Shown here one piece after another: positions 11,324 through 19,678 of a stretch of DNA of 32,000 nt. Position 1 is the first letter of the stretch, and every line of letters starts with the position of its first letter. The notes beneath the pieces were generated by a model. It was not told the DNA's origin. It saw nothing but the letters and a program-made list of their open reading frames with translations, and ran no database searches. The DNA comes from Erysipelotrichaceae bacterium (lineage in GTDB: Bacteria > Bacillota_I > Bacilli_A > Erysipelotrichales > Coprobacillaceae), in assembly GCA_028698185.1 (NCBI GenBank), contig JAQVDW010000014.1, positions 1 through 32,000 on the forward strand, read 5' to 3'. Made by a program: the position numbers and the translations under genes.

Positions 11324-12550
11324 ATGTTTAAAGAAAACTTACAGAAATACGCCCGCCTGCTGGTCGAGAGCGGGCTTAATGTCCAGGAAGGGCAAGTGGT
11401 GGCGGTGATGGCTACCATCGAAGCGGTCGAGCTTGTCCGCGAGGTGACCAAGGCGGCATACAATAGGAAAGCCAAGGAAGTTCGGGTTCTATACGATGAT
11501 GAATTCGTGACACGCCAGAAGTATCTGAATTCTCCCCTGGAAGTGTTCGAGAGTGTGCCTAAATACATCAGCGAGTTCCGCAACGAACTGGTGGAACAGG
11601 ATTCATGCATCCTGTTCTTGCGCGGTGACGATCCGGAACTTCTCAAAGGATGCGACCGTGAGAAAGTGGCGGCCAACACTAAAAACATGATGCTCGCGCT
11701 CAAACCGTTCAATGACAAGCGTGACAATATGGAACTTTCATGGTGCATCGGGGCCGTCCCAAGTGCGGCCTGGGCCAACAAGGTATATCCGGATATGGCT
11801 ACCCATGAGGCTATCGAAGCCCTGTGGCAGGCGATATTCAAGGTGACATACACAACAAAGGATGATCCTGTGGCATTCTACAGCCAGAACAAGATCAACT
11901 TCGAGAACCGGGTGAAATATCTCAACGATCTGAAGATCGAATCGCTGCATTACAGAAATTCCCTGGGAACCGACCTTGTGGTCGAACTCCCTGAGAAGTA
12001 CCTTTTTGCCGGCGGCGGCAGCTATCTTAGCAACGGGGTGTACAACTTCCCGAACATTCCGACCGAAGAGGTTTTCACCGTGAACAAGAAGCATGGGGTG
12101 AACGGTATTGTCTACAGCTCGATGCCGCTCAATTACCATGGCAATCTCATCGAAGACTTCTCGTTCAAGTTTGAGGACGGCAAGATCGTCGAAGCCAAGG
12201 CCCGGGTCAATGAAGCGGTTCTCAATGACATGATCTCGCTCGATGAAGGAGCCTGCTATCTAGGCGAGGTGGCCCTTGTCCCTTACGACAGCCCTATCAG
12301 CAATCTCAATACTTTGTTCTATATGACCTTGCTTGATGAAAATGCTTCTTGCCATTTCGCAATCGGAAATTCCTACATCGAATGTCTTGATGGCGGATTG
12401 ACGATGAGCGAAGAGGAAAAGAAGGCCCAGGATGTCAACGAATCCCTGACCCATGTCGACTTCATGGTCGGCACAAGCGACCTGGAAATCATCGCGACTA
12501 CCAGAGACAATAAAAAAGTCCTTATCTTCAAGGATGGAAACTTCGTTTAA
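11324..12550 (+). CDS. Aminopeptidase, M29 family (PepS/AmpS-like)
   Basis: The ~408-aa length and the N-terminus 'FKENLQKYARLLVESGLNVQEGQVV' are typical of M29 aminopeptidases. GGAGGA (11312-11317) lies 6 nt before ATG 11324; the track start at 11300 is TTG. Confidence 0.8.
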   Translation: MFKENLQKYARLLVESGLNVQEGQVVAVMATIEAVELVREVTKAAYNRKAKEVRVLYDDEFVTRQKYLNSPLEVFESVPKYISEFRNELVEQDSCILFLRGDDPELLKGCDREKVAANTKNMMLALKPFNDKRDNMELSWCIGAVPSAAWANKVYPDMATHEAIEALWQAIFKVTYTTKDDPVAFYSQNKINFENRVKYLNDLKIESLHYRNSLGTDLVVELPEKYLFAGGGSYLSNGVYNFPNIPTEEVFTVNKKHGVNGIVYSSMPLNYHGNLIEDFSFKFEDGKIVEAKARVNEAVLNDMISLDEGACYLGEVALVPYDSPISNLNTLFYMTLLDENASCHFAIGNSYIECLDGGLTMSEEEKKAQDVNESLTHVDFMVGTSDLEIIATTRDNKKVLIFKDGNFV

Positions 12551-12580
12551 AAAACACAGGCCAAGAGGCCTGTGTTTTTG
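12549..12580. terminator. Bidirectional intrinsic terminator between convergent genes
   Basis: ACACAGGCC (12554-12562), AAGA loop, GGCCTGTGT (12567-12575), flanked by an A-run upstream and a T-run downstream. Confidence 0.8.
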
Positions 12581-12582
12581 TA

Positions 12583-14262
12583 TCATGCTGTGTATTCTTC
12601 AAGGAGCTTTTCGATTTCATGGTAACGGGGATCATTGTTCTGGTAATACAGGTAGGCTAGTTCCTGGTAGATGTTGGCGATGAAACTCCGGAAATGGGGA
12701 TCGATCATGCTTAGCTCCTGGGCGTTGGAAAGTGACTGCAGGCAGAACTCGATTGCCTTGTCGTAGTCCTGGAGCGCCAGGTAATATTTGGAAAAAAGCT
12801 TGTAAGTCTTGGCCTTTTCCTCGAGCAAGTACTCGACCTGGTCGATTTCGGTTTTTTCAAGCAGTGATTCGAGGACAAGCAGATTTTCATACAATCGGTC
12901 AAGGTCCTTCAATGCCAGGTGGTTCTGGGCGATCAGCCGGTAGATCGGCGCGTACTGGATCTTGTCGACATATATCTGGTCGTAACAATTCAATGCGGCT
13001 CGAAGATTGGTGAGCGACTGGTCGAATTCATGGAGATAGTAGTCGGTCTCGCCGATGATTAGATAACAGCTGCCAATCAGGAAGTGGAATCTTTCATCGG
13101 TCGCCTTGATCTTGGAAAAATATTCCAGGGCAATCTGGCCATAATCCTTGGCTTTTTCGTAATCCTTGAGGCCTAGGTGGCATACGGCAAGGATCCGGTA
13201 GACGACGGCCACGTCATAATTTATCATATCCTCGTCGTTGTCTTCCCTTGCGATGTTCTGGAATGAACCTAGCGCCTTTTGGGCGAATTCAACCGCTTCC
13301 TTGTAGCGGTCAAGATGGCTGCAGGTCTCGGCGACTGTAAGATAAATCGGGCCAAGAGCGTAACTGTCCTCGTCATTGATCATGAGCAGGTAGAACAGCG
13401 ACTGCTTGAGTGAATCCAGCAGTTTTGCATTCTTGTTCAGGTTTCTTTGCAGGGTGGCCAGAACGAGGTAGCTGTCGGCGAGGTTCGAGATGCCGTTGGG
13501 ATCTTCGGGACTCATATTGTATAGCTCGAGGCGGGCATTGATTGCCGCCTGGGCCGAATCGACAGCCAGACCAAACCGGTTGAGACTGGTGTTGAGCCGG
13601 GTAACCTGCTGGTGATAGATTGCCAGGTAAAGAAGGTAGTTGCGGCTTTTCTTGTTTTCGAACAGGTTCAAATAACGCCAGGACTGTTCCAATGAACGCT
13701 CGACTTGGTCGTATTTTTGGACATTGAGCAAATGGTTGGTGTGGATCAGGTTGTTGAAACCTATTTCGTGAATCTGCACGGGTTTGAGATAACCCACGTC
13801 GATTCCATTAAGGGTATTCAGGTATATCTCGTAATCGTGGTGCATCTTTTTTTGGTGGTAATAGTTGATCAGGTTTATCAGGGAATTTACGTACATCGGG
13901 ATGTAGATGTCGTCTTGCGCTGAGAGTTCCTGGTAATCCTCGACGCCGCTGCGGAGGTAGTCCTGAGTGTTCTTGGCAAAATCCAGTTTGACTGACAGGC
14001 TGCCAAGCAGACTGTTGATATAGGCCCGGTCCTGCATGTTGATCTCGGTCAAATCGAGATGGACGAGGGCCTCATAGGCCTCTTCGTACGATTCGAAAGC
14101 ATTAAGCAGCGAGGCGTATTTGATGGAAAAATAAATCTGCCCTTCCTTGGTGAGCCGGTGCGACAAAAGCAGATCCTCATACAGTATGATCAATTCCCCG
14201 GCGCCCTGCTCATCCAAAGGCCGGTTTTCCAATTCTTCTATTTGTTTTAGTATATCTTCCAT
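12583..14262 (-). CDS. Stand-alone tetratricopeptide-repeat (TPR) protein, ~559 aa, no other recognisable domain
   Basis: All-helical, with repeated TPR-like units such as 'YEEAYEAL', 'DRYKEAVEFAQKAL', 'KDYEKAKDYGQIALEYF' and 'QDYDKAIEFCLQSL'. SD AGAGAGGT lies 5 nt before ATG 14262; the track start at 14292 is less likely. No HTH, signal peptide or TM segment. Confidence 0.8.
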   Translation of the reverse strand: MEDILKQIEELENRPLDEQGAGELIILYEDLLLSHRLTKEGQIYFSIKYASLLNAFESYEEAYEALVHLDLTEINMQDRAYINSLLGSLSVKLDFAKNTQDYLRSGVEDYQELSAQDDIYIPMYVNSLINLINYYHQKKMHHDYEIYLNTLNGIDVGYLKPVQIHEIGFNNLIHTNHLLNVQKYDQVERSLEQSWRYLNLFENKKSRNYLLYLAIYHQQVTRLNTSLNRFGLAVDSAQAAINARLELYNMSPEDPNGISNLADSYLVLATLQRNLNKNAKLLDSLKQSLFYLLMINDEDSYALGPIYLTVAETCSHLDRYKEAVEFAQKALGSFQNIAREDNDEDMINYDVAVVYRILAVCHLGLKDYEKAKDYGQIALEYFSKIKATDERFHFLIGSCYLIIGETDYYLHEFDQSLTNLRAALNCYDQIYVDKIQYAPIYRLIAQNHLALKDLDRLYENLLVLESLLEKTEIDQVEYLLEEKAKTYKLFSKYYLALQDYDKAIEFCLQSLSNAQELSMIDPHFRSFIANIYQELAYLYYQNNDPRYHEIEKLLEEYTA

Positions 14263-14414
14263 AGGGCACCTCTCTTTACTATATTCTACCATCTAATCGA
14301 AAACGATACAAACAAATATCCCGACATTTGAGTAGCGCTATCAACTTTTTGTGTAACTTATTGTCAGCAAGAAGTTTGTTTTGTTGAACAATACCATTAA
14401 TTGGCGGTTTGGTG

Positions 14415-14443
14415 TTGAAAAACGGGCGCCCACCAAGTAAAAT
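14415..14443 (+). promoter_or_regulatory. Sigma-A-type promoter for the HTH triad (TTGAAA-17-TAAAAT)
   Basis: TTGAAA at 14415-14420, a 17-nt spacer containing the GGGCGCCC palindrome, and TAAAAT at 14438-14443. A short palindrome TTGTTgAACAA lies upstream at 14381-14391. Confidence 0.5.
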
Positions 14444-14482
14444 TAATGTAGAATATTTCAAAAAGTCATGCGGGGGCTATTT

Positions 14483-15613
14483 ATGAACGAATTTGTCACG
14501 ATGTTGAACAATTTTATCGAGAACTCCGGTATCTCACAAAGCCAGATTTCGCGGGATGTGAATATCAGCCGGACCAAACTGAACAAGTGTCTTAACGGCA
14601 AAAGAAACCTGACATATCAGGAACTCGACCAGATCTGCAAGTATCTGTCTCTCTCTAGTTTCCAGGAAAGCGTGCTCAAACAGGCATTCACCAACCGGGA
14701 CCTGACCGGATTGCAGCATCGGAATTTCGCCGAACTTGACAACCTGTTCCGCAACATCCATGAGGTCAAGAAAATCGATTGCAACCAGATGATAATCCAT
14801 CCCCGCAATCAGATAGAAATCAGCCAGGGCCATTACTTCGGCCGGCTCAACGTCATAACGATGATCAAGAAGATAATCCGCGCCCATTATGACTTGAAAC
14901 ATAAGGCTGATCTGGTCATGAACCTGCCCCTGTACGATAATCTGCTGCGCCAGTTTTTCATCGAGATATTGTGCAATTTCAACTCGAACTTCCAGATAAC
15001 CCACCTGATTCCAATCAATCACGAGGACAGCATGGTCAATGAGGAATTCAATGTGCTCAATGTGCTCAACCAGGTGGTGCCCCTGGCAATGTTGGGACAT
15101 TACCGATACAACAGCTGGTATTTCGATGCCTACCTGCTGAAAAACGAATTCAATATCTACCCTTATTTCATAATCGTCAATAATGTGGCTTTGTTTGTTT
15201 CGGGCGACCTGAAAAACCTCATGGTCGATAAAAACGGGGAGGCGATCAGGTATTACACCAAAGTGAGCGAACTGCAGAAATTGGCTTCAAAACCCCTGGT
15301 CAGACAGACGAGTGAAGTTCCCGACCTTGACTACGATATCATTTTCTCCGACGAACGGGCGGTCAGGGAGACATACCGGGCCGCAAAAATGGTTTCAATC
15401 AGAGAAGCAAAGGAGATTTACCGGAAAAACACCAAACTCCCTTACAATGATGGCAGCCGCAACACGCACGAGGGAATAAGTATCTTCTTCAAGGATGACC
15501 TGTTGGTAATCAAGCTCAATGACAACCGGAGCGACTGTCTGATGATTGAAAACCGGAATCTGATCAATTCTTTCAAGGATTATATCCGCGCCAATATCAC
15601 AGCAAATATCTGA
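14483..15613 (+). CDS. XRE-type HTH protein with an uncharacterised ~310-aa C-terminal domain (paralog 1 of 3)
   Basis: N-terminal HTH 'SGISQSQISRDVNISRTKLNKCLNGKRNLTYQELDQICKYLSL'. Its C-terminal motifs are shared with the two downstream genes. The alternative start is 14468. Confidence 0.8.
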   Translation: MNEFVTMLNNFIENSGISQSQISRDVNISRTKLNKCLNGKRNLTYQELDQICKYLSLSSFQESVLKQAFTNRDLTGLQHRNFAELDNLFRNIHEVKKIDCNQMIIHPRNQIEISQGHYFGRLNVITMIKKIIRAHYDLKHKADLVMNLPLYDNLLRQFFIEILCNFNSNFQITHLIPINHEDSMVNEEFNVLNVLNQVVPLAMLGHYRYNSWYFDAYLLKNEFNIYPYFIIVNNVALFVSGDLKNLMVDKNGEAIRYYTKVSELQKLASKPLVRQTSEVPDLDYDIIFSDERAVRETYRAAKMVSIREAKEIYRKNTKLPYNDGSRNTHEGISIFFKDDLLVIKLNDNRSDCLMIENRNLINSFKDYIRANITANI

Positions 15614-15632
15614 TTGCAGGAAAGGAGCAACT

Positions 15633-16577
15633 ATGTTCGGAGAAGTTTTGAAAAAAATCGTGGATGAAAGCGACATTTCGCTAGCGAAGCTCAGTCGTTC
15701 CAGCGGGGTTTCCCGTTCAATGCTTTATAAGGTGATCAAAGGGGAAAGCGGGCTTTCTCAGGAAAAATTCACCCAGCTGGTAAATACCGAGCTTTTCAAT
15801 GCAAACCAGGTCACGGACCTGATGGATGCATATCTTCTAAGCTCCAACTCCGCCAGAGATGGCAAAGGGGTCATCCGTGCCTTGAACTTCATTGAAAATC
15901 TCCAAAGGAACCAATCGCGCAAAGTGAGCGAACATGTCGAACCGGTCAAAACCGAAGGCTACCAGATGCTCTATGGAAAAGAAAATATCGGAAACATGTT
16001 AAGCAGCGCCCTGGCGAACTATCAAAAGGAGATATTGATCCTGAATCAGGAAAAATCGCGGGTGGAAAAACACATCCCTGAAACAGGGAAAAACATCATC
16101 ATCCTGAAGAACATCAGTGACCTGTCGAAAAAAGTCACAAATCTCAATGACGGTCTGCTTGCCTGTTTGCGCAATCCGGATCTCGAATTGTACTATACCA
16201 CGGTGCCGACGCTCAATATCTCCATTTACGACAATTATATTCTTGTCGATGATGTCTTATACATGTATGACAGTGGCCTTGGTTCGATGGCATATACATC
16301 CAATAAAAGGCGGATCAGATTTTTCAAAGGTATATTTCTTGAGCGTCTTGAGTCTGCCAACCGGTATTTCAAGTTGGAACCGCTGTTTAAAAACTATCAG
16401 GAGGTCCTGAAAATTGACGACCGGCAGTCCATAATTTTCAAGGACCAGCATTATTACATCAAAAACGGCAGCCGGGTCATAAGCCTGGACAAGATGCTGG
16501 AAGATGATTTAAGCGACTATTTTGCCAAAGGAGTCCAGGATGTCAAAATTCACAAAAAAACTGCAAGAACTGATTGA
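15633..16577 (+). CDS. XRE-type HTH protein with an uncharacterised C-terminal domain (paralog 2 of 3)
   Basis: N-terminal HTH 'SDISLAKLSRSSGVSRSMLYKVIKGESGLSQEKFTQLV'. SD AAAGGAG lies 5 nt before ATG 15633. It shares the motifs 'NYILVDD..Y.YDSG' and C-terminal 'LSDYF'. Confidence 0.8.
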   Translation: MFGEVLKKIVDESDISLAKLSRSSGVSRSMLYKVIKGESGLSQEKFTQLVNTELFNANQVTDLMDAYLLSSNSARDGKGVIRALNFIENLQRNQSRKVSEHVEPVKTEGYQMLYGKENIGNMLSSALANYQKEILILNQEKSRVEKHIPETGKNIIILKNISDLSKKVTNLNDGLLACLRNPDLELYYTTVPTLNISIYDNYILVDDVLYMYDSGLGSMAYTSNKRRIRFFKGIFLERLESANRYFKLEPLFKNYQEVLKIDDRQSIIFKDQHYYIKNGSRVISLDKMLEDDLSDYFAKGVQDVKIHKKTARTD

Positions 16578-17982
16578 AAAGTATGATGTGCCCACATCCA
16601 AACTGGCCAAAGTGCTGGGTGTCGACAAGGAGGACCTGGCGCTTGTCTACGATGAATCAATCGTTTTGAATCGGGAAAATTACCAGGAACTGGTAAAGAC
16701 TATGGATCTGAACATCATCGAGGCCCGCGAGCTTGAAAAGCTGTTCAATATCTATGTCTTTGGCGAGGACGAATACAACTACAAGACGAAGATCCGTGAT
16801 TTTCTAGAACAAATCTCATTTAAAATCAACTGGGATCTTGACAAGAACTACTTCTGTGAAAATGCCCGGCTTTACAAAAACGCCTATCAGGACAGTTTCT
16901 ACCAGTATGAAAGCCAGATGTCGCTGATCCTGGCAATCAAAAGGGTTGTCAACAGTTCGCTTTGCAACGACGAAAAGACCAGGATCCGCCTGGTCTACAA
17001 TTTCAACAACGAGTATCTCCTTGGCTATTTTTATGAGATTTTTTCCAGCTACCAGGTCAATCTGGAAATAACCCACCTGACGACATTTGGCGGGCTGCAC
17101 AACGGCGATTTCGATTTGAACATATTGTCGTATCTGATATCCCTGGTCCTGGTGTCGGATCTCAATTACAATTGTTTTTACAACAACGATTACCAGCGGT
17201 TGGTAGCTGGAGATTTTAGCAACTACATGATTGTCAATGAGAAAACCTTCATTTTCGATGACCCGCTAAGCCGGGGAATGCTTATCAGCGATCCTGGCCA
17301 GGTCGAGGCGTTCACCAAGAAGTTCGACGATTCTATCAAGATGTTCAAGCCGATGGCGTACCGCTGTGATTCGATCGACAGGTTCAACGAGATCTACCGG
17401 CACATCAACCGGGAAATGGTTTATTACTCGATCGAACCCGGCGTCTATCTCAACAATTTCCTGACCCGGGAGATGCTGCTCAAATACTACAACTACGCGC
17501 CCGACCAGTCCGAAAAGATCGCCGACAAGATGCTCAAGACCTTAGGCAGAAAAAACCGCCAGCGGGTCTACAAGATAGTGGTCACTGTCGAAGGGCTGAG
17601 CGATTTCGTGATCAACGGGGTGAACAATTCCTTCCCCCAGGTTGCCAATCTGCGCTACACTGTGGAAGAAAGAAAACAGATCCTGGAGGAAATGATCGAA
17701 GGGGTGAGAAACGACACTTACCAGCTCAATATCATCAATACCAAGAGCTTAATGCTGCCCCAGTCGCTGGTCACCGTGGCTTCCCACAAATCCGGCCTGT
17801 TTTTCACCATGGTGCGCGATTATGGAAATGAATCGGGGAATATTTCGTTCTATCTCGACGACCCGGCTCTAGGCAAGCTTTTCTGTGATTTCATCGACAG
17901 CCTGAAAGATGACAATGTTGCTTACAATAAAGAGGATACATTGTTGCTTTTGACCCAAATGATAAACGGTTACTTGGATTGA
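16540..17982 (+). CDS. XRE-type (degenerate) HTH protein with an uncharacterised ~420-aa C-terminal domain (paralog 3 of 3)
   Basis: N-terminal 'DVPTSKLAKVLGVDKEDLALVYDESIVLNRENYQELVKTMDL'. AAGGAG (16528-16533) lies 6 nt before ATG 16540, inside the last 38 nt of paralog 2. 'NLEITHL' matches 'NFQITHL' of paralog 1. Confidence 0.8.
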   Translation: MSKFTKKLQELIEKYDVPTSKLAKVLGVDKEDLALVYDESIVLNRENYQELVKTMDLNIIEARELEKLFNIYVFGEDEYNYKTKIRDFLEQISFKINWDLDKNYFCENARLYKNAYQDSFYQYESQMSLILAIKRVVNSSLCNDEKTRIRLVYNFNNEYLLGYFYEIFSSYQVNLEITHLTTFGGLHNGDFDLNILSYLISLVLVSDLNYNCFYNNDYQRLVAGDFSNYMIVNEKTFIFDDPLSRGMLISDPGQVEAFTKKFDDSIKMFKPMAYRCDSIDRFNEIYRHINREMVYYSIEPGVYLNNFLTREMLLKYYNYAPDQSEKIADKMLKTLGRKNRQRVYKIVVTVEGLSDFVINGVNNSFPQVANLRYTVEERKQILEEMIEGVRNDTYQLNIINTKSLMLPQSLVTVASHKSGLFFTMVRDYGNESGNISFYLDDPALGKLFCDFIDSLKDDNVAYNKEDTLLLLTQMINGYLD

Positions 17983-18009
17983 TGTGCGAAATAAGCTTGG
18001 ATTATTGGG

Positions 18010-18039
18010 TTGATTACCTGTGCGCTATTTTTGTATAAT
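18010..18039 (+). promoter_or_regulatory. Near-consensus sigma-A promoter (TTGATT-18-TATAAT) with no annotated gene downstream
   Basis: TTGATT at 18010-18015 and TATAAT at 18034-18039, with an 18-nt spacer. A TGTGCG direct repeat (17983-17988 and 18019-18024) flanks the -35. Confidence 0.55.
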
Positions 18040-18090
18040 TAATGTCACACCTATAGTGGCATATTGCAATCTTAAAGAGAGTGGTCTAGA

Positions 18091-18129
18091 ATGATATCAG
18101 GTAATACGAAATGGGGAATAATAATATAA
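18091..18129 (+). CDS. Candidate 12-aa micro-ORF (MISGNTKWGIII), highly tentative
   Basis: ATG 18091 lies ~52 nt after the -10 and is preceded by AAAGAGAGTGG, which resembles the SD used by the TPR gene (AAAGAGAGGTG). The C-terminus is hydrophobic. A 12-aa ORF can easily arise by chance. Confidence 0.2.
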   Translation: MISGNTKWGIII

Positions 18130-18275
18130 TTCGTATTGCTGAATTTTGTTGGGGCTCTTTCTATGCTCGGGAAATTTTTATATGTAGTGTCGATTAAGGT
18201 TAATGGGGATTTCCTTTAATCAACGGAAACGATTGTATTCATAATAACTTGAGACTTCGGTCTGATCGTTCGGGG

Positions 18276-18304
18276 GACAGTTAATTTATTAGCTGTCTTT
18301 TTTC
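18276..18304 (+). terminator. Weak hairpin plus T-tract that could end the small plus-strand transcript
   Basis: GACAG (18276-18280) pairs with CTGTC (18293-18297) around a 12-nt AT loop, followed by T7 (18298-18304). The stem is only 5 bp. Confidence 0.3.
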
Positions 18305-18323
18305 GTTGCTGATTTGACCTGAC

Positions 18324-18352
18324 AAAAAAACGGAACTCTTAAAAAGTCCCGT
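18324..18352 (-). terminator. Intrinsic terminator of the hydrolase gene (minus strand)
   Basis: ACGGAAC (18330-18336) pairs with GTCCCGT (18346-18352) with 1 mismatch. A7 on the plus strand (18324-18330) gives a U-tract on the minus strand, just after the stop at 18359. Confidence 0.55.
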
Positions 18353-18358
18353 AAATCA

Positions 18359-19606
18359 TCATATATGGTTGGCAATCCATGACCATGAGTCCAATCCGGT
18401 CACGTCGTCGAAGGCCTCGTTGTTGTCGAAATAGATCCATGACCAATGCCCGTTGTATCGGTAAGGATTACCCTTGTCATCGGTGTATTTTCCGGATGTG
18501 TCTATCACCATGTCGGTTGTCGCCACGGCGAGGTTCTTTGCTCCGGCATTTTTGAGCCGTTCAATTACCGGGATTTCATACAACAGCGGATCGACCACCT
18601 GATCGTCATTGGAATAAATGAAGTAAAGCGGCTGGTCTTTCAATCGGTTGATGTCGTCGTCGCTTACCCAACCATCAAGTTTGGCGGCGCAAATCGGAAC
18701 TCCGGCAGCGAAGTAACCGGGATAGCTGGTCATCATTTCCAGAACCATGAAGCCGCCGTTGGAACACCCGGTGAGCACTACCTTGCTTGCGCCGCATTCG
18801 TTTTTGTGGCGTTCGATCAGCTCCATCAGGCTTTTGGTATACAGGCTTGATCCCTCGGCGGTGAAGTCGCCGCTGCCATCATCCATCCACATTGTCGGGC
18901 ATTGGGGCGCCAGAATGGCGGCGTTCTTGATGGTTTTTTGGAATTTTTCTCCGGCCAGGGCTCCGGCCTTGTTTCCTAGCACCGGCATGTAGGCGTCGCT
19001 ATTGTCCGTCCCGCCTTCGCCCATGCCATGGAGCCAGACAACCAGGGTTTCATAGCGTGACTTTGGCTTGTAGCTAACGTAATCGTAGCTTATGCCCGAT
19101 TCTGTCATATGGTTCGACAGTTCGAACATATCGACGGATGTCACGATTCCCGTCGCCTCTCTGGCTATGTCCAGGCAAGCGAACTGGCCTTCTGGTGTCT
19201 CTAGCGTTGCTCCTTCTTCAAGAGCGAATGTCAGGAAGTAGGGGTCCGACCATGAGTTTTTCTGGGTCTTCATCGAAAAAAGCAACGGCGATCCCGTTTC
19301 CGGGCTGACATACATCTTAAGGGCAATATGGTAACTTGGACCTTCGCACCTGTTGCCTGAACTGTCGCAAAGATAAGCGTCTGTGACTTCCCGTCTGGTC
19401 TTGTTGATAACTACCGGGAAATCCGTGCCGGTCCAGTCGGTCTCCTGTTTGGTTTCGAATACCAGAAAATCCTTGGCGTCGACCCTGCTTATTTTGCGCT
19501 CCATGGTCAAGACAGCTTTGTTTACCCCTGCGCCCCAGTCGTATCCCGTCACCAAGAAGCTGTAGGTTCCGGTTATCGGTGCGCTGCGCATTTTTTTTGA
19601 ATTCAT
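18359..19606 (-). CDS. Alpha/beta-hydrolase (serine esterase/peptidase-like) with an extra ~170-aa N-terminal domain
   Basis: Nucleophile elbow 'LTGCSNGG' (G-x-S-x-G) and 'VVWLHGMGEGG', with candidate triad Asp ('SNDDQVVD') and His ('NGHWSW'). No signal peptide. GGAGG lies 7 nt before ATG 19606; the track start at 19612 is 1 nt from the SD. Confidence 0.75.
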   Translation of the reverse strand: MNSKKMRSAPITGTYSFLVTGYDWGAGVNKAVLTMERKISRVDAKDFLVFETKQETDWTGTDFPVVINKTRREVTDAYLCDSSGNRCEGPSYHIALKMYVSPETGSPLLFSMKTQKNSWSDPYFLTFALEEGATLETPEGQFACLDIAREATGIVTSVDMFELSNHMTESGISYDYVSYKPKSRYETLVVWLHGMGEGGTDNSDAYMPVLGNKAGALAGEKFQKTIKNAAILAPQCPTMWMDDGSGDFTAEGSSLYTKSLMELIERHKNECGASKVVLTGCSNGGFMVLEMMTSYPGYFAAGVPICAAKLDGWVSDDDINRLKDQPLYFIYSNDDQVVDPLLYEIPVIERLKNAGAKNLAVATTDMVIDTSGKYTDDKGNPYRYNGHWSWIYFDNNEAFDDVTGLDSWSWIANHI

Positions 19607-19678
19607 CGTCATACCTCCGTGTCGTTGATTAAATTATATTTCATCTTCAAGCCGGAGGTCTTTCCAAAATGTAACTGA

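Follow-up and report, generated by a model that had tools for sequence, protein, structure and literature searches.

Three tandem XRE-type proteins of Coprobacillaceae with a predicted phospholipase D-like sensor module that lacks the HKD motif

Why does one chromosome carry three consecutive genes for helix-turn-helix (HTH) proteins, and what is the large domain that follows the HTH in each of them? The question is raised by a stretch of 32,000 nt from a gut Coprobacillaceae bacterium (Erysipelotrichaceae bacterium, assembly GCA_028698185.1, contig JAQVDW010000014.1, positions 1 to 32,000 of the forward strand), which we refer to as the window. We call the products of the three co-directional genes paralogs 1, 2 and 3. 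A preliminary description of this DNA, made from its letters alone, had proposed three tandem paralogs that share an unrecognised C-terminal domain behind an XRE-type HTH, the second and third genes being translationally coupled; the three open reading frames (ORFs), their lengths and every peptide block that it quoted are exact in the sequence. We consider it fairly probable that the proteins are three diverged copies of a previously unmodelled type of one-component regulator, which would consist of an XRE HTH, two linker helices and a sensor with the fold of phospholipase D (PLD) but without its HxK(x)4D (HKD) motif. As part of the same reading, and with the same degree of confidence, paralog 3 would keep the ancestral two-lobed layout of ~480 aa and paralogs 1 and 2 would be lineage-specific shortened duplicates. 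Coordinates are collected in Table 1.

Relationship of the three proteins and their wider family

The relationship of the three proteins was assessed by pairwise and profile alignment. By BLASTP, paralogs 1 and 3 matched across 289 aa (E 2e-8), and the matches of paralog 2 to the other two were confined to the HTH. Alignment of ortholog profiles with hhalign, each profile holding five sequences, joined paralogs 1 and 3 at 97% probability (E 9e-11), and removal of the first 94 residues left a match of 93.5% probability over 135 columns (E 2e-7). Full-length paralog 2 reached 95% against paralog 1 and 79% against paralog 3; with its HTH taken away, it matched the two at E 1.5e-3 and 0.011, and the same 'NY-I-L-V-D-D' block was aligned. 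When the comparison was made with a profile of 79 sequences from the wider family described below, paralog 1 without its HTH matched at 99.4% (E 4e-21) and full-length paralog 2 at 99.1% (E 7e-19). Paralog 2 without its HTH matched the same profile at E 1e-4 with a score of 34.5, and none of 20 column-shuffled controls scored above 21.5. Two blocks, 'Y-x-[IL]-V-[ND]' and a terminal 'F-x-D-[YF]', were in register in all alignments, and the terminal block is the best-conserved motif of the wider family (F448, D450 and F451). The proposal of three tandem paralogs is thus borne out by alignments beyond chance, more weakly for paralog 2, which still stands above its shuffled controls. Judged from these alignments, it is beyond doubt that paralogs 1 and 3 share a domain behind the HTH, and paralog 2 comes out as a divergent but real member.

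Only when HMMER was run exhaustively, with a profile built from paralogs 1 and 3 minus their HTH, did the wider family surface; a word-indexed protein search had yielded just 4-5 clusters per paralog. HMMER returned 471 clusters at E<=1e-3, and 140 of these reached E<=1e-10; most of the sequences are of 470-500 aa and were matched by the profile from end to end. Where taxonomy was sampled, these sequences came from Clostridia and Erysipelotrichales, and they are encoded as single genes in Eubacterium, Lachnospiraceae and similar genomes. Existing annotations call them 'helix-turn-helix transcriptional regulator', 'hypothetical protein' or 'VapI'. Two of five sampled genes are divergent from an adjacent operon, a placement typical of local regulators, and the rest have no consistent partner. 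One of the two faces a type VII secretion/WXG100 operon (locus L012, 1-7467) and the other a zinc-ribbon/DZR/YARHG membrane-protein cluster (L011, 280-7476), a hint that loci for the envelope or for secretion are often under the control of this family.

The three heads are recognised to different degrees by sequence models. Paralog 1 matched Pfam HTH_26 (E 5e-8, 33.6 bits against a cutoff of 22) and HTH_3 (23.5 against 23), and paralog 2 was borderline for HTH_3 (22.8 bits against 23, E 9.5e-5). Paralog 3 had no XRE-type Pfam match and scored weakly for HTH_60 (19.9 against a cutoff of 24.1); in the wider family, HTH_31 or HTH_3 matched about half of the 79 members. The HTH models of PADLOC and PHROGs likewise matched paralog 1, weakly paralog 2, and not paralog 3. 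In the AlphaFold2 (AF2) models introduced below, both paralog 1 and paralog 3 have helices at about residues 3-15, 19-26, 30-37, 45-55 and 59-70, which is a lambda-repressor-like fold. The five-helix head of paralog 3 was modelled at a predicted local distance difference test score (pLDDT) >90, and that of paralog 1 superposed on C.BclI and C.Esp1396I with a target-normalised template modelling (TM) score of 0.70-0.75. The family consensus of the recognition region is 'g-x-e-R-T-x-i-q-k-x-l-s-G-e-R', and its net charge ranged from 0 to +5 in 77 members. In paralog 1 this region (ISRTKLNKCLNGKRN) is fully canonical with a net charge of +4/+5, in paralog 2 it is intermediate (0 to +2), and in paralog 3 (VDKEDLALVYDES) its charge ran from -5 to +1 across five orthologs.

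Fold of the post-HTH module

No Pfam or NCBIfam model matched the region behind the HTH in the three paralogs or the 79 family members; the HTH alone was recognised. PDB sequence searches with paralog 1, paralog 3 and the HTH-less profile gave nothing useful, and a BFVD fold search returned HTH-only matches. AF2 models were built for paralog 1 on 13 sequences and for paralog 3 on the 79-sequence alignment, and the fold and lobe boundaries reported here were taken from Foldseek tables and DSSP strings of these two models.

The paralog 3 model reached a pLDDT of 88.7 and a predicted TM score (pTM) of 0.88. Foldseek against the PDB gave 27 matches at E<1e-3, with probabilities of ~1.0, and every one of them belonged to the PLD superfamily or was TrmBL2. 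They included phosphatidylserine synthase PssA (3hsi and 8yr5, 460-500 aligned columns), PLD3, PLD1/2 and TrmBL2 (5bpd and 5bpi, E 5e-5 to 9e-5, target-normalised TM ~0.4). Matches at E 1e-3 to 4e-2 were likewise of the PLD fold, namely further PLD1/2 chains, Streptomyces PLD (1f0i, 1v0w), Zucchini and NucT, and the target-normalised TM to the single-lobe NucT was 0.62. By DSSP, the order beta-alpha-beta-alpha-beta-alpha-beta, beta-beta-beta, alpha occurs twice, once in each of the residue ranges given in Table 1, and paralog 3 is therefore described as having two PLD-like lobes that are joined to an XRE head by two linker helices. The paralog 1 model was mediocre (pLDDT 64); its top Foldseek matches were the TrmB sugar-binding domain 2f5t (E 5e-3), followed in second rank by FAM83 4urj, and NucT and Zucchini. 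The label 'unrecognised' for the C-terminal domain consequently stands for the sequence models of Pfam and NCBIfam and falls for structure, where AF2 and Foldseek point to a PLD-like fold.

Both models are mixed alpha/beta, in agreement with the earlier view that the domain is not built of tetratricopeptide repeats (TPRs) and that the proteins fall outside Rgg/PlcR. A large C-terminal domain behind an XRE HTH, with a TPR protein encoded next door, could also describe peptide-sensing quorum regulators of the Rgg/PlcR/RRNPP kind or antitoxin-like XRE regulators of the DUF5753/Scr1 type, and by eye the strand-strand-strand-helix element of the sensor is similar to the last part of DUF5753. We hold this to be very improbable: the sensor is alpha/beta and not an all-helical TPR array, ComR appeared only at E 0.2 and through the HTH in the Foldseek search with the paralog 1 model, neither DUF5753 (PF19054) nor any TPR model matched the three paralogs in Pfam at E<=1, and no conserved small peptide ORF lies nearby. 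An early idea that the sensor might be a distant DUF5753 had no Pfam support and was superseded by the PLD-fold result.

A PLD fold could mean a PLD enzyme, and the catalytic motif was therefore sought in the alignments. Columns conserved at >=60% in the 79 family sequences are H179, N192, P201, Y210, P227-Y228-Y229, S240, D242, P302-C303, G352, G360, R378 and F448-x-D450-F451, and no lysine is among them. The HKD motif is conserved in neither lobe, in the three paralogs or in the 79 family members. In the corresponding strand-turn-strand the family has F-P-Y-Y-I-I-T...S-x-D and paralog 3 has N-Y-M-I-V-N-E, and at the HKD-equivalent position the three paralogs carry NYMIVNE, PYFIIVN or NYILVDD. 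From the topology we infer that the 'Y-x-[IL]-V-[ND]' block occupies the strand-turn-strand that holds HKD in true PLDs. Because the motif is absent, the paralogs would not be catalytic PLDs.

This bears directly on the idea of an active PLD-family nuclease or phosphodiesterase that the HTH tethers to DNA, for example as a defence or addiction module. In its favour, PLD-superfamily enzymes, the nucleases NucT, Zucchini and PLD3 among them, gave the best structural matches. Against such an enzyme stand the missing HKD motif, the PADLOC and PHROGs results, which consist of HTH matches only and therefore give no link to defence systems or phages, and the setting of the genes in syntenic chromosomal DNA amid housekeeping genes, with no island. 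We regard an active enzyme as scarcely credible. Taken together, we conclude that the post-HTH region is, as modelled, a catalytically inert PLD-like fold that has two lobes in paralog 3.

The lobes also bear on the unequal lengths of the three proteins, which had earlier been attributed to insertions. In paralogs 1 and 2, ~100-170 residues of lobe 2 are missing, and only its final strand-strand-strand-helix with the F-x-D-Y/F motif is retained; the homology of these tails has weak support, at E 4e-3 to 4.5e-3 (paralog 2 against the paralog 1 tail, E 4.5e-3). Since ~480 aa is the norm of the wider family, deletion explains the differences better than insertion.

Organisation and conservation of the locus

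The three paralog genes form one operon. The ATG assigned to paralog 1 is supported by its orthologs, which begin with MNEF or MSEF. Its gene is followed after 19 nt by that of paralog 2, which has its own Shine-Dalgarno (SD) sequence, AAAGGAG, and ends with a stop codon at 16575-16577. The SD sequence and start codon of paralog 3 that had been placed inside the second gene, and the resulting overlap of 38 nt, were all confirmed in the DNA.

Table 1. Features of the three-gene locus and its surroundings, in window coordinates
Feature	Position	Strand	Description
TPR-repeat protein gene	12583-14292	-	569 aa, without HTH, divergent from the three-gene operon; Pfam TPR_12, TPR_2, TPR_8
Candidate sigma-70-type promoter of the paralog operon	14415-14443	+	TTGAAA-17-TAAAAT; promoter scan, 10/12 matches
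Paralog 1	14483-15613	+	376 aa; canonical XRE HTH, helical linker, predicted PLD-like lobe 1, predicted lobe-2 remnant (strand-strand-strand-helix, F-K-D-Y)
Paralog 2	15633-16577	+	314 aa; XRE HTH, helical linker, predicted divergent PLD-like lobe 1, predicted lobe-2 remnant (L-S-D-Y-F)
Gene 2/gene 3 junction	16528-16577	+	SD AAGGAG (16528-16533) and ATG (16540) within the last 38 nt of paralog 2
Paralog 3	16540-17982	+	480 aa; XRE-fold head, two linker helices, predicted lobe 1 (~120-266) and lobe 2 (~273-454), C-terminal helix
Palindrome TGTCAC-N7-GTGGCA	18043-18061		Directly upstream of the -35 box of the small RNA promoter; candidate operator
Candidate small RNA promoter	18064-18092	+	TTGCAA-17-TAGAAT; promoter scan
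Candidate structured small RNA	18096-18303	+	~208 nt; four helices and a 3'-end intrinsic terminator, GGGG/GGA-rich (UGGGGA) loops

Five loci carry the triad, and they represent at least two species of Coprobacillaceae: the window and four others (L001, L002, L009 and L010), which are carried by two complete chromosomes assembled from metagenomes and labelled Coprobacillaceae (OY776328, OY780959) and by two metagenome contigs. The unit of the TPR gene (on the minus strand) and paralogs 1, 2 and 3 is kept in the window, L001, L002 and L009, where it is flanked by an M29 aminopeptidase gene and esterase/AraC genes; in L010 the three paralogs are present and the contig ends upstream of paralog 1. 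The overlap of genes 2 and 3 with an SD sequence inside gene 2, described earlier for the window, proved to be kept in all five loci. In L001 and L002 the junction reads AGGAG, 6 nt, ATG with an overlap of 20 nt, and in L009 and L010 the gene calls overlap.

Synonymous sites are saturated, with a proportion of synonymous differences (pS) of 0.6-0.9, and among the closer orthologs that of nonsynonymous differences (pN) was 0.14-0.23; pN was ~0.20 for paralogs 1 and 2 and 0.14 for paralog 3. For the TPR gene, pN was 0.11-0.13 against a pS of 0.6-0.75. Where it could be computed, dN/dS was ~0.07-0.15 for the three paralogs and the TPR gene, which indicates purifying selection, and none of the paralog copies appears to be decaying. 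These values speak to the suggestion that paralogs 1 and 2 are copies of paralog 3 that have lost their function and are decaying, as their being shorter than the family standard and evolving somewhat faster might imply. Since their ORFs are intact and have SD sequences in all five loci, down to 37-38% identity, since pN stays far under the saturated pS, and since the paralog 1 HTH is the best preserved of the three, we consider decay most unlikely. Readings of the proteins as active PLD enzymes, as RRNPP-type or DUF5753-type regulators, or as pseudogene products are all poorly supported.

Upstream of the operon, the GTTGAAA and AGTAAAATTAA blocks of the candidate promoter are invariant in the window, L001 and L002, and the remaining spacer has diverged. 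The best PDB sequence match of the divergently encoded TPR protein was a bacterial kinesin-light-chain-like TPR protein (E 1e-3), and no NCBIfam match was found for it; the gene is a candidate target or partner of the paralogs. In the divergent promoter region between the TPR and paralog 1 genes there is a weak imperfect inverted repeat, ACAAACAAA / TTTTGTGTAAC (G[AT]TACAAACAAA ... TTTTTGTGTAAC), which is common to the window (14303-14360) and L001 (7769-7820) and absent from L002. It is a possible operator, on weak evidence. The rest of the window is ordinary chromosomal DNA, with genes for a sulfatase, a chromate transporter, LysR, adenine deaminase, PTS, GH1 and the rhamnose pathway.

Downstream of the operon, conservation of the 376-nt spacer (17983-18358) far exceeds that of the coding DNA on either side, even in the locus whose proteins are only ~40% identical. 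In all five triad loci it contains, next to the operon, a candidate small RNA (sRNA). RNAalifold on the five sequences gave 56 pairs, 13 of which show compensatory double changes, and 94.9% of cells were paired. None of 500 shuffles reached the observed values, slid controls had 0-4 double changes, and G-U pairs occur only when the plus strand is read. No Rfam match was found in either gathering or E-value mode, and a covariance model of the sRNA matched only the five triad loci. We provisionally take the spacer to encode a new, conserved structured sRNA, its structure being predicted from five sequences. Sequences complementary to its G-rich loops did not exceed chance within the window. Six further loci from a pattern scan of metagenomes were chance matches, none of which fits the covariance model, and small ORFs in 17983-18358 were rejected as peptide genes because their frame is not conserved and is broken by indels in the orthologs.

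The hexamers of the candidate sRNA promoter are kept in the five loci (TTGCAA/TTGAAT ... TAGAAT/TAAAAT) and the spacer between them varies. The palindrome in front of it is the sole match to TGTCAC-N7-GTGGCA in the window, and TGTCAC-N7-GTGRCA stands at the same place in L001, L002, L009 and L010 and in none of the unrelated loci; in L002 it is perfect (TGTCAC-N7-GTGACA). We propose it as a putative operator of the XRE paralogs. The spacer holds two terminators that face each other, the second being an intrinsic terminator (18330-18352, minus strand) of the convergent EstA-like esterase gene (18359-19612), ~25 nt from that of the sRNA. In L002, which comes from a more distant Coprobacillaceae genome, three tandem esterase-like genes (11858-16154) take the place of the single EstA-like gene.

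Possible division of labour and comparison with known systems

How might the three proteins work? As we picture it, the PLD-like module would bind a small ligand or a partner protein in the cleft between its lobes, and DNA binding would be controlled thereby; a sensing role is suggested by the parallel with TrmB, in which sugar is bound by a PLD-like subdomain together with a second subdomain, and DNA binding is controlled in this way (PMC4158304). Paralog 1, and probably paralog 2, would be the DNA-reading subunits. Paralog 3, with its acidic recognition helix, would mainly sense or modulate, probably in mixed oligomers. Likely targets would be the shared divergent promoter region, and with it the operon itself and the TPR gene, and/or the palindrome-flanked promoter of the sRNA.

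The paralogs have degenerated in complementary ways, paralog 1 combining a basic helix with a truncated sensor and paralog 3 an acidic helix with a full one. This complementarity makes hetero-oligomerisation more plausible, and together with strict co-occurrence and conserved translational coupling it led us to hypothesize a division of labour among the paralogs, possibly in mixed oligomers. We advance this tentatively and would not expect it to prove right in most such cases. Bolder, and to our mind doubtful, is the proposal that duplication split a one-component regulator into three subunits, of which paralog 1 would read DNA, paralog 3 would sense and paralog 2 would bridge. The single-lobe paralogs would then pair lobe to lobe like Nuc-type PLD dimers and so rebuild the ligand cleft, and the heteromer would control the sRNA through TGTCAC-N7-GTGRCA, and also the TPR gene.

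The main rival to these proposals is that the three are independent homodimeric regulators, each with its own ligand and operator, which tandem duplication has placed together, and that the head of paralog 3, though non-canonical, still binds DNA. In favour of this, the family occurs elsewhere as single genes, purifying selection acts along the whole length of all three paralogs, the paralog 3 head is still XRE-folded at high model confidence, and gene overlaps are common in operons and do not by themselves imply a complex. Set against this, in four of five orthologs the recognition helix of paralog 3 has an acidic net charge, which none of the 77 other family members shows; paralogs 1 and 2, without most of lobe 2, could not form a bilobed module alone; and in each of the five loci the three genes occur together. 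On balance we think that three independent homodimers are unlikely, though the possibility deserves to be taken seriously.

Several observations weigh against our reading of the proteins as diverged regulators with an HKD-less PLD-fold sensor, and against the roles that we assign to them. The absence of HKD was judged by conservation in alignments and not by residue-level structural superposition. The paralog 1 model is of low confidence, and the homology of the paralog 2 sensor is weak once the HTH is removed. Against two-lobed PLD enzymes, paralog 3 reaches global TM scores of only 0.23-0.26 (rmsd 16-20 Å), and the relative arrangement of the lobes may therefore differ. No sequence similarity was detected between lobes 1 and 2 of paralog 3 (hhalign E 0.11), so that the case for a lobe duplication comes from structure alone. 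The putative loss of DNA binding by paralog 3 is argued from sequence, by charge and motif loss only, and the recognition helix of one paralog 3 ortholog (P0009) has a net charge of +1. Finally, the 14293-14482 region holds no further copy of the palindrome found at 18043-18061.

A sensor of this type would mark out a family of bacterial transcription factors for which no model has existed. It would comprise ~470 clusters at 50% identity from Clostridia and Erysipelotrichales of the gut, and a Pfam or NCBIfam model can be built straight from the family alignment. It would also mean that the dead-PLD sensor of archaeal TrmB regulators has been coupled to an XRE head as well, here in a full two-lobed form. 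The Coprobacillaceae triad would offer a natural case of complementary degeneration of DNA reading and sensing, tractable for the question of how one-component regulators become multi-subunit, and the adjacent conserved sRNA with its operator-like palindrome would be a concrete, testable output of the system.

Among known systems, TrmB provides the closest parallel in layout. It consists of a winged HTH, a coiled-coil helix and an effector domain of two subdomains, with the sugar bound in the cleft between them (PMC4158304). The archaeal TrmB and TrmBL2 of P. furiosus and the paralogs share, in the same order, an N-terminal HTH, a helical linker and an eight-stranded alpha/beta PLD-like effector subdomain; the linker is a dimerising coiled coil in TrmB, and its counterpart here is the helical linker. 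The differences are that the head of the paralogs is of the XRE/Cro-C1 type and not the winged helix of TrmB, that the second subdomain is a flattened beta-barrel in TrmB and a second PLD-like lobe in paralog 3, and that the paralogs are hosted by bacterial Bacillota. The TrmB domain (PF01978) had no match in the three paralogs at E<=1, and Regulator_TrmB (PF11495) had none in the three paralogs at E<=1 or in the 79 family members at E<=0.01. With neither of the two Pfam domains that define TrmB, and with a different second subdomain, the paralogs fall outside the TrmB family.

The two-lobed PLD enzymes (PssA, PLD3, PLD1/2 and Streptomyces PLD) resemble paralog 3 in the fold of each lobe and in having two lobes per chain, and the single-lobe dimers Nuc/NucT and Zucchini resemble it in the fold of each lobe. 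In contrast to these enzymes, the paralogs lack HxK(x)4D(x)6GSxN and have a fused DNA-binding domain, and sequence identity is 8-14%. The DUF1669 domain of FAM83 (e.g. 4urj) is likewise a PLD fold that serves for binding and not for catalysis; unlike the paralogs, FAM83 proteins are eukaryotic scaffolds without a DNA-binding head, and no sequence relationship is detectable. XRE-cupin regulators such as PsdR and MmyB-like XRE-PAS regulators also join an XRE head to a C-terminal small-molecule sensor and often lie beside the genes that they regulate (PMC7901475, PMC3406030). Their sensor is a cupin or PAS-like domain rather than a PLD-like one, and those families have Pfam models and characterised members. 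Our literature searches found no description of an XRE regulator with a PLD-like domain. We conclude that what is new is the combination of head and sensor and the unmodelled sensor family, and that the working logic is like that of TrmB-type and XRE-plus-sensor regulators.

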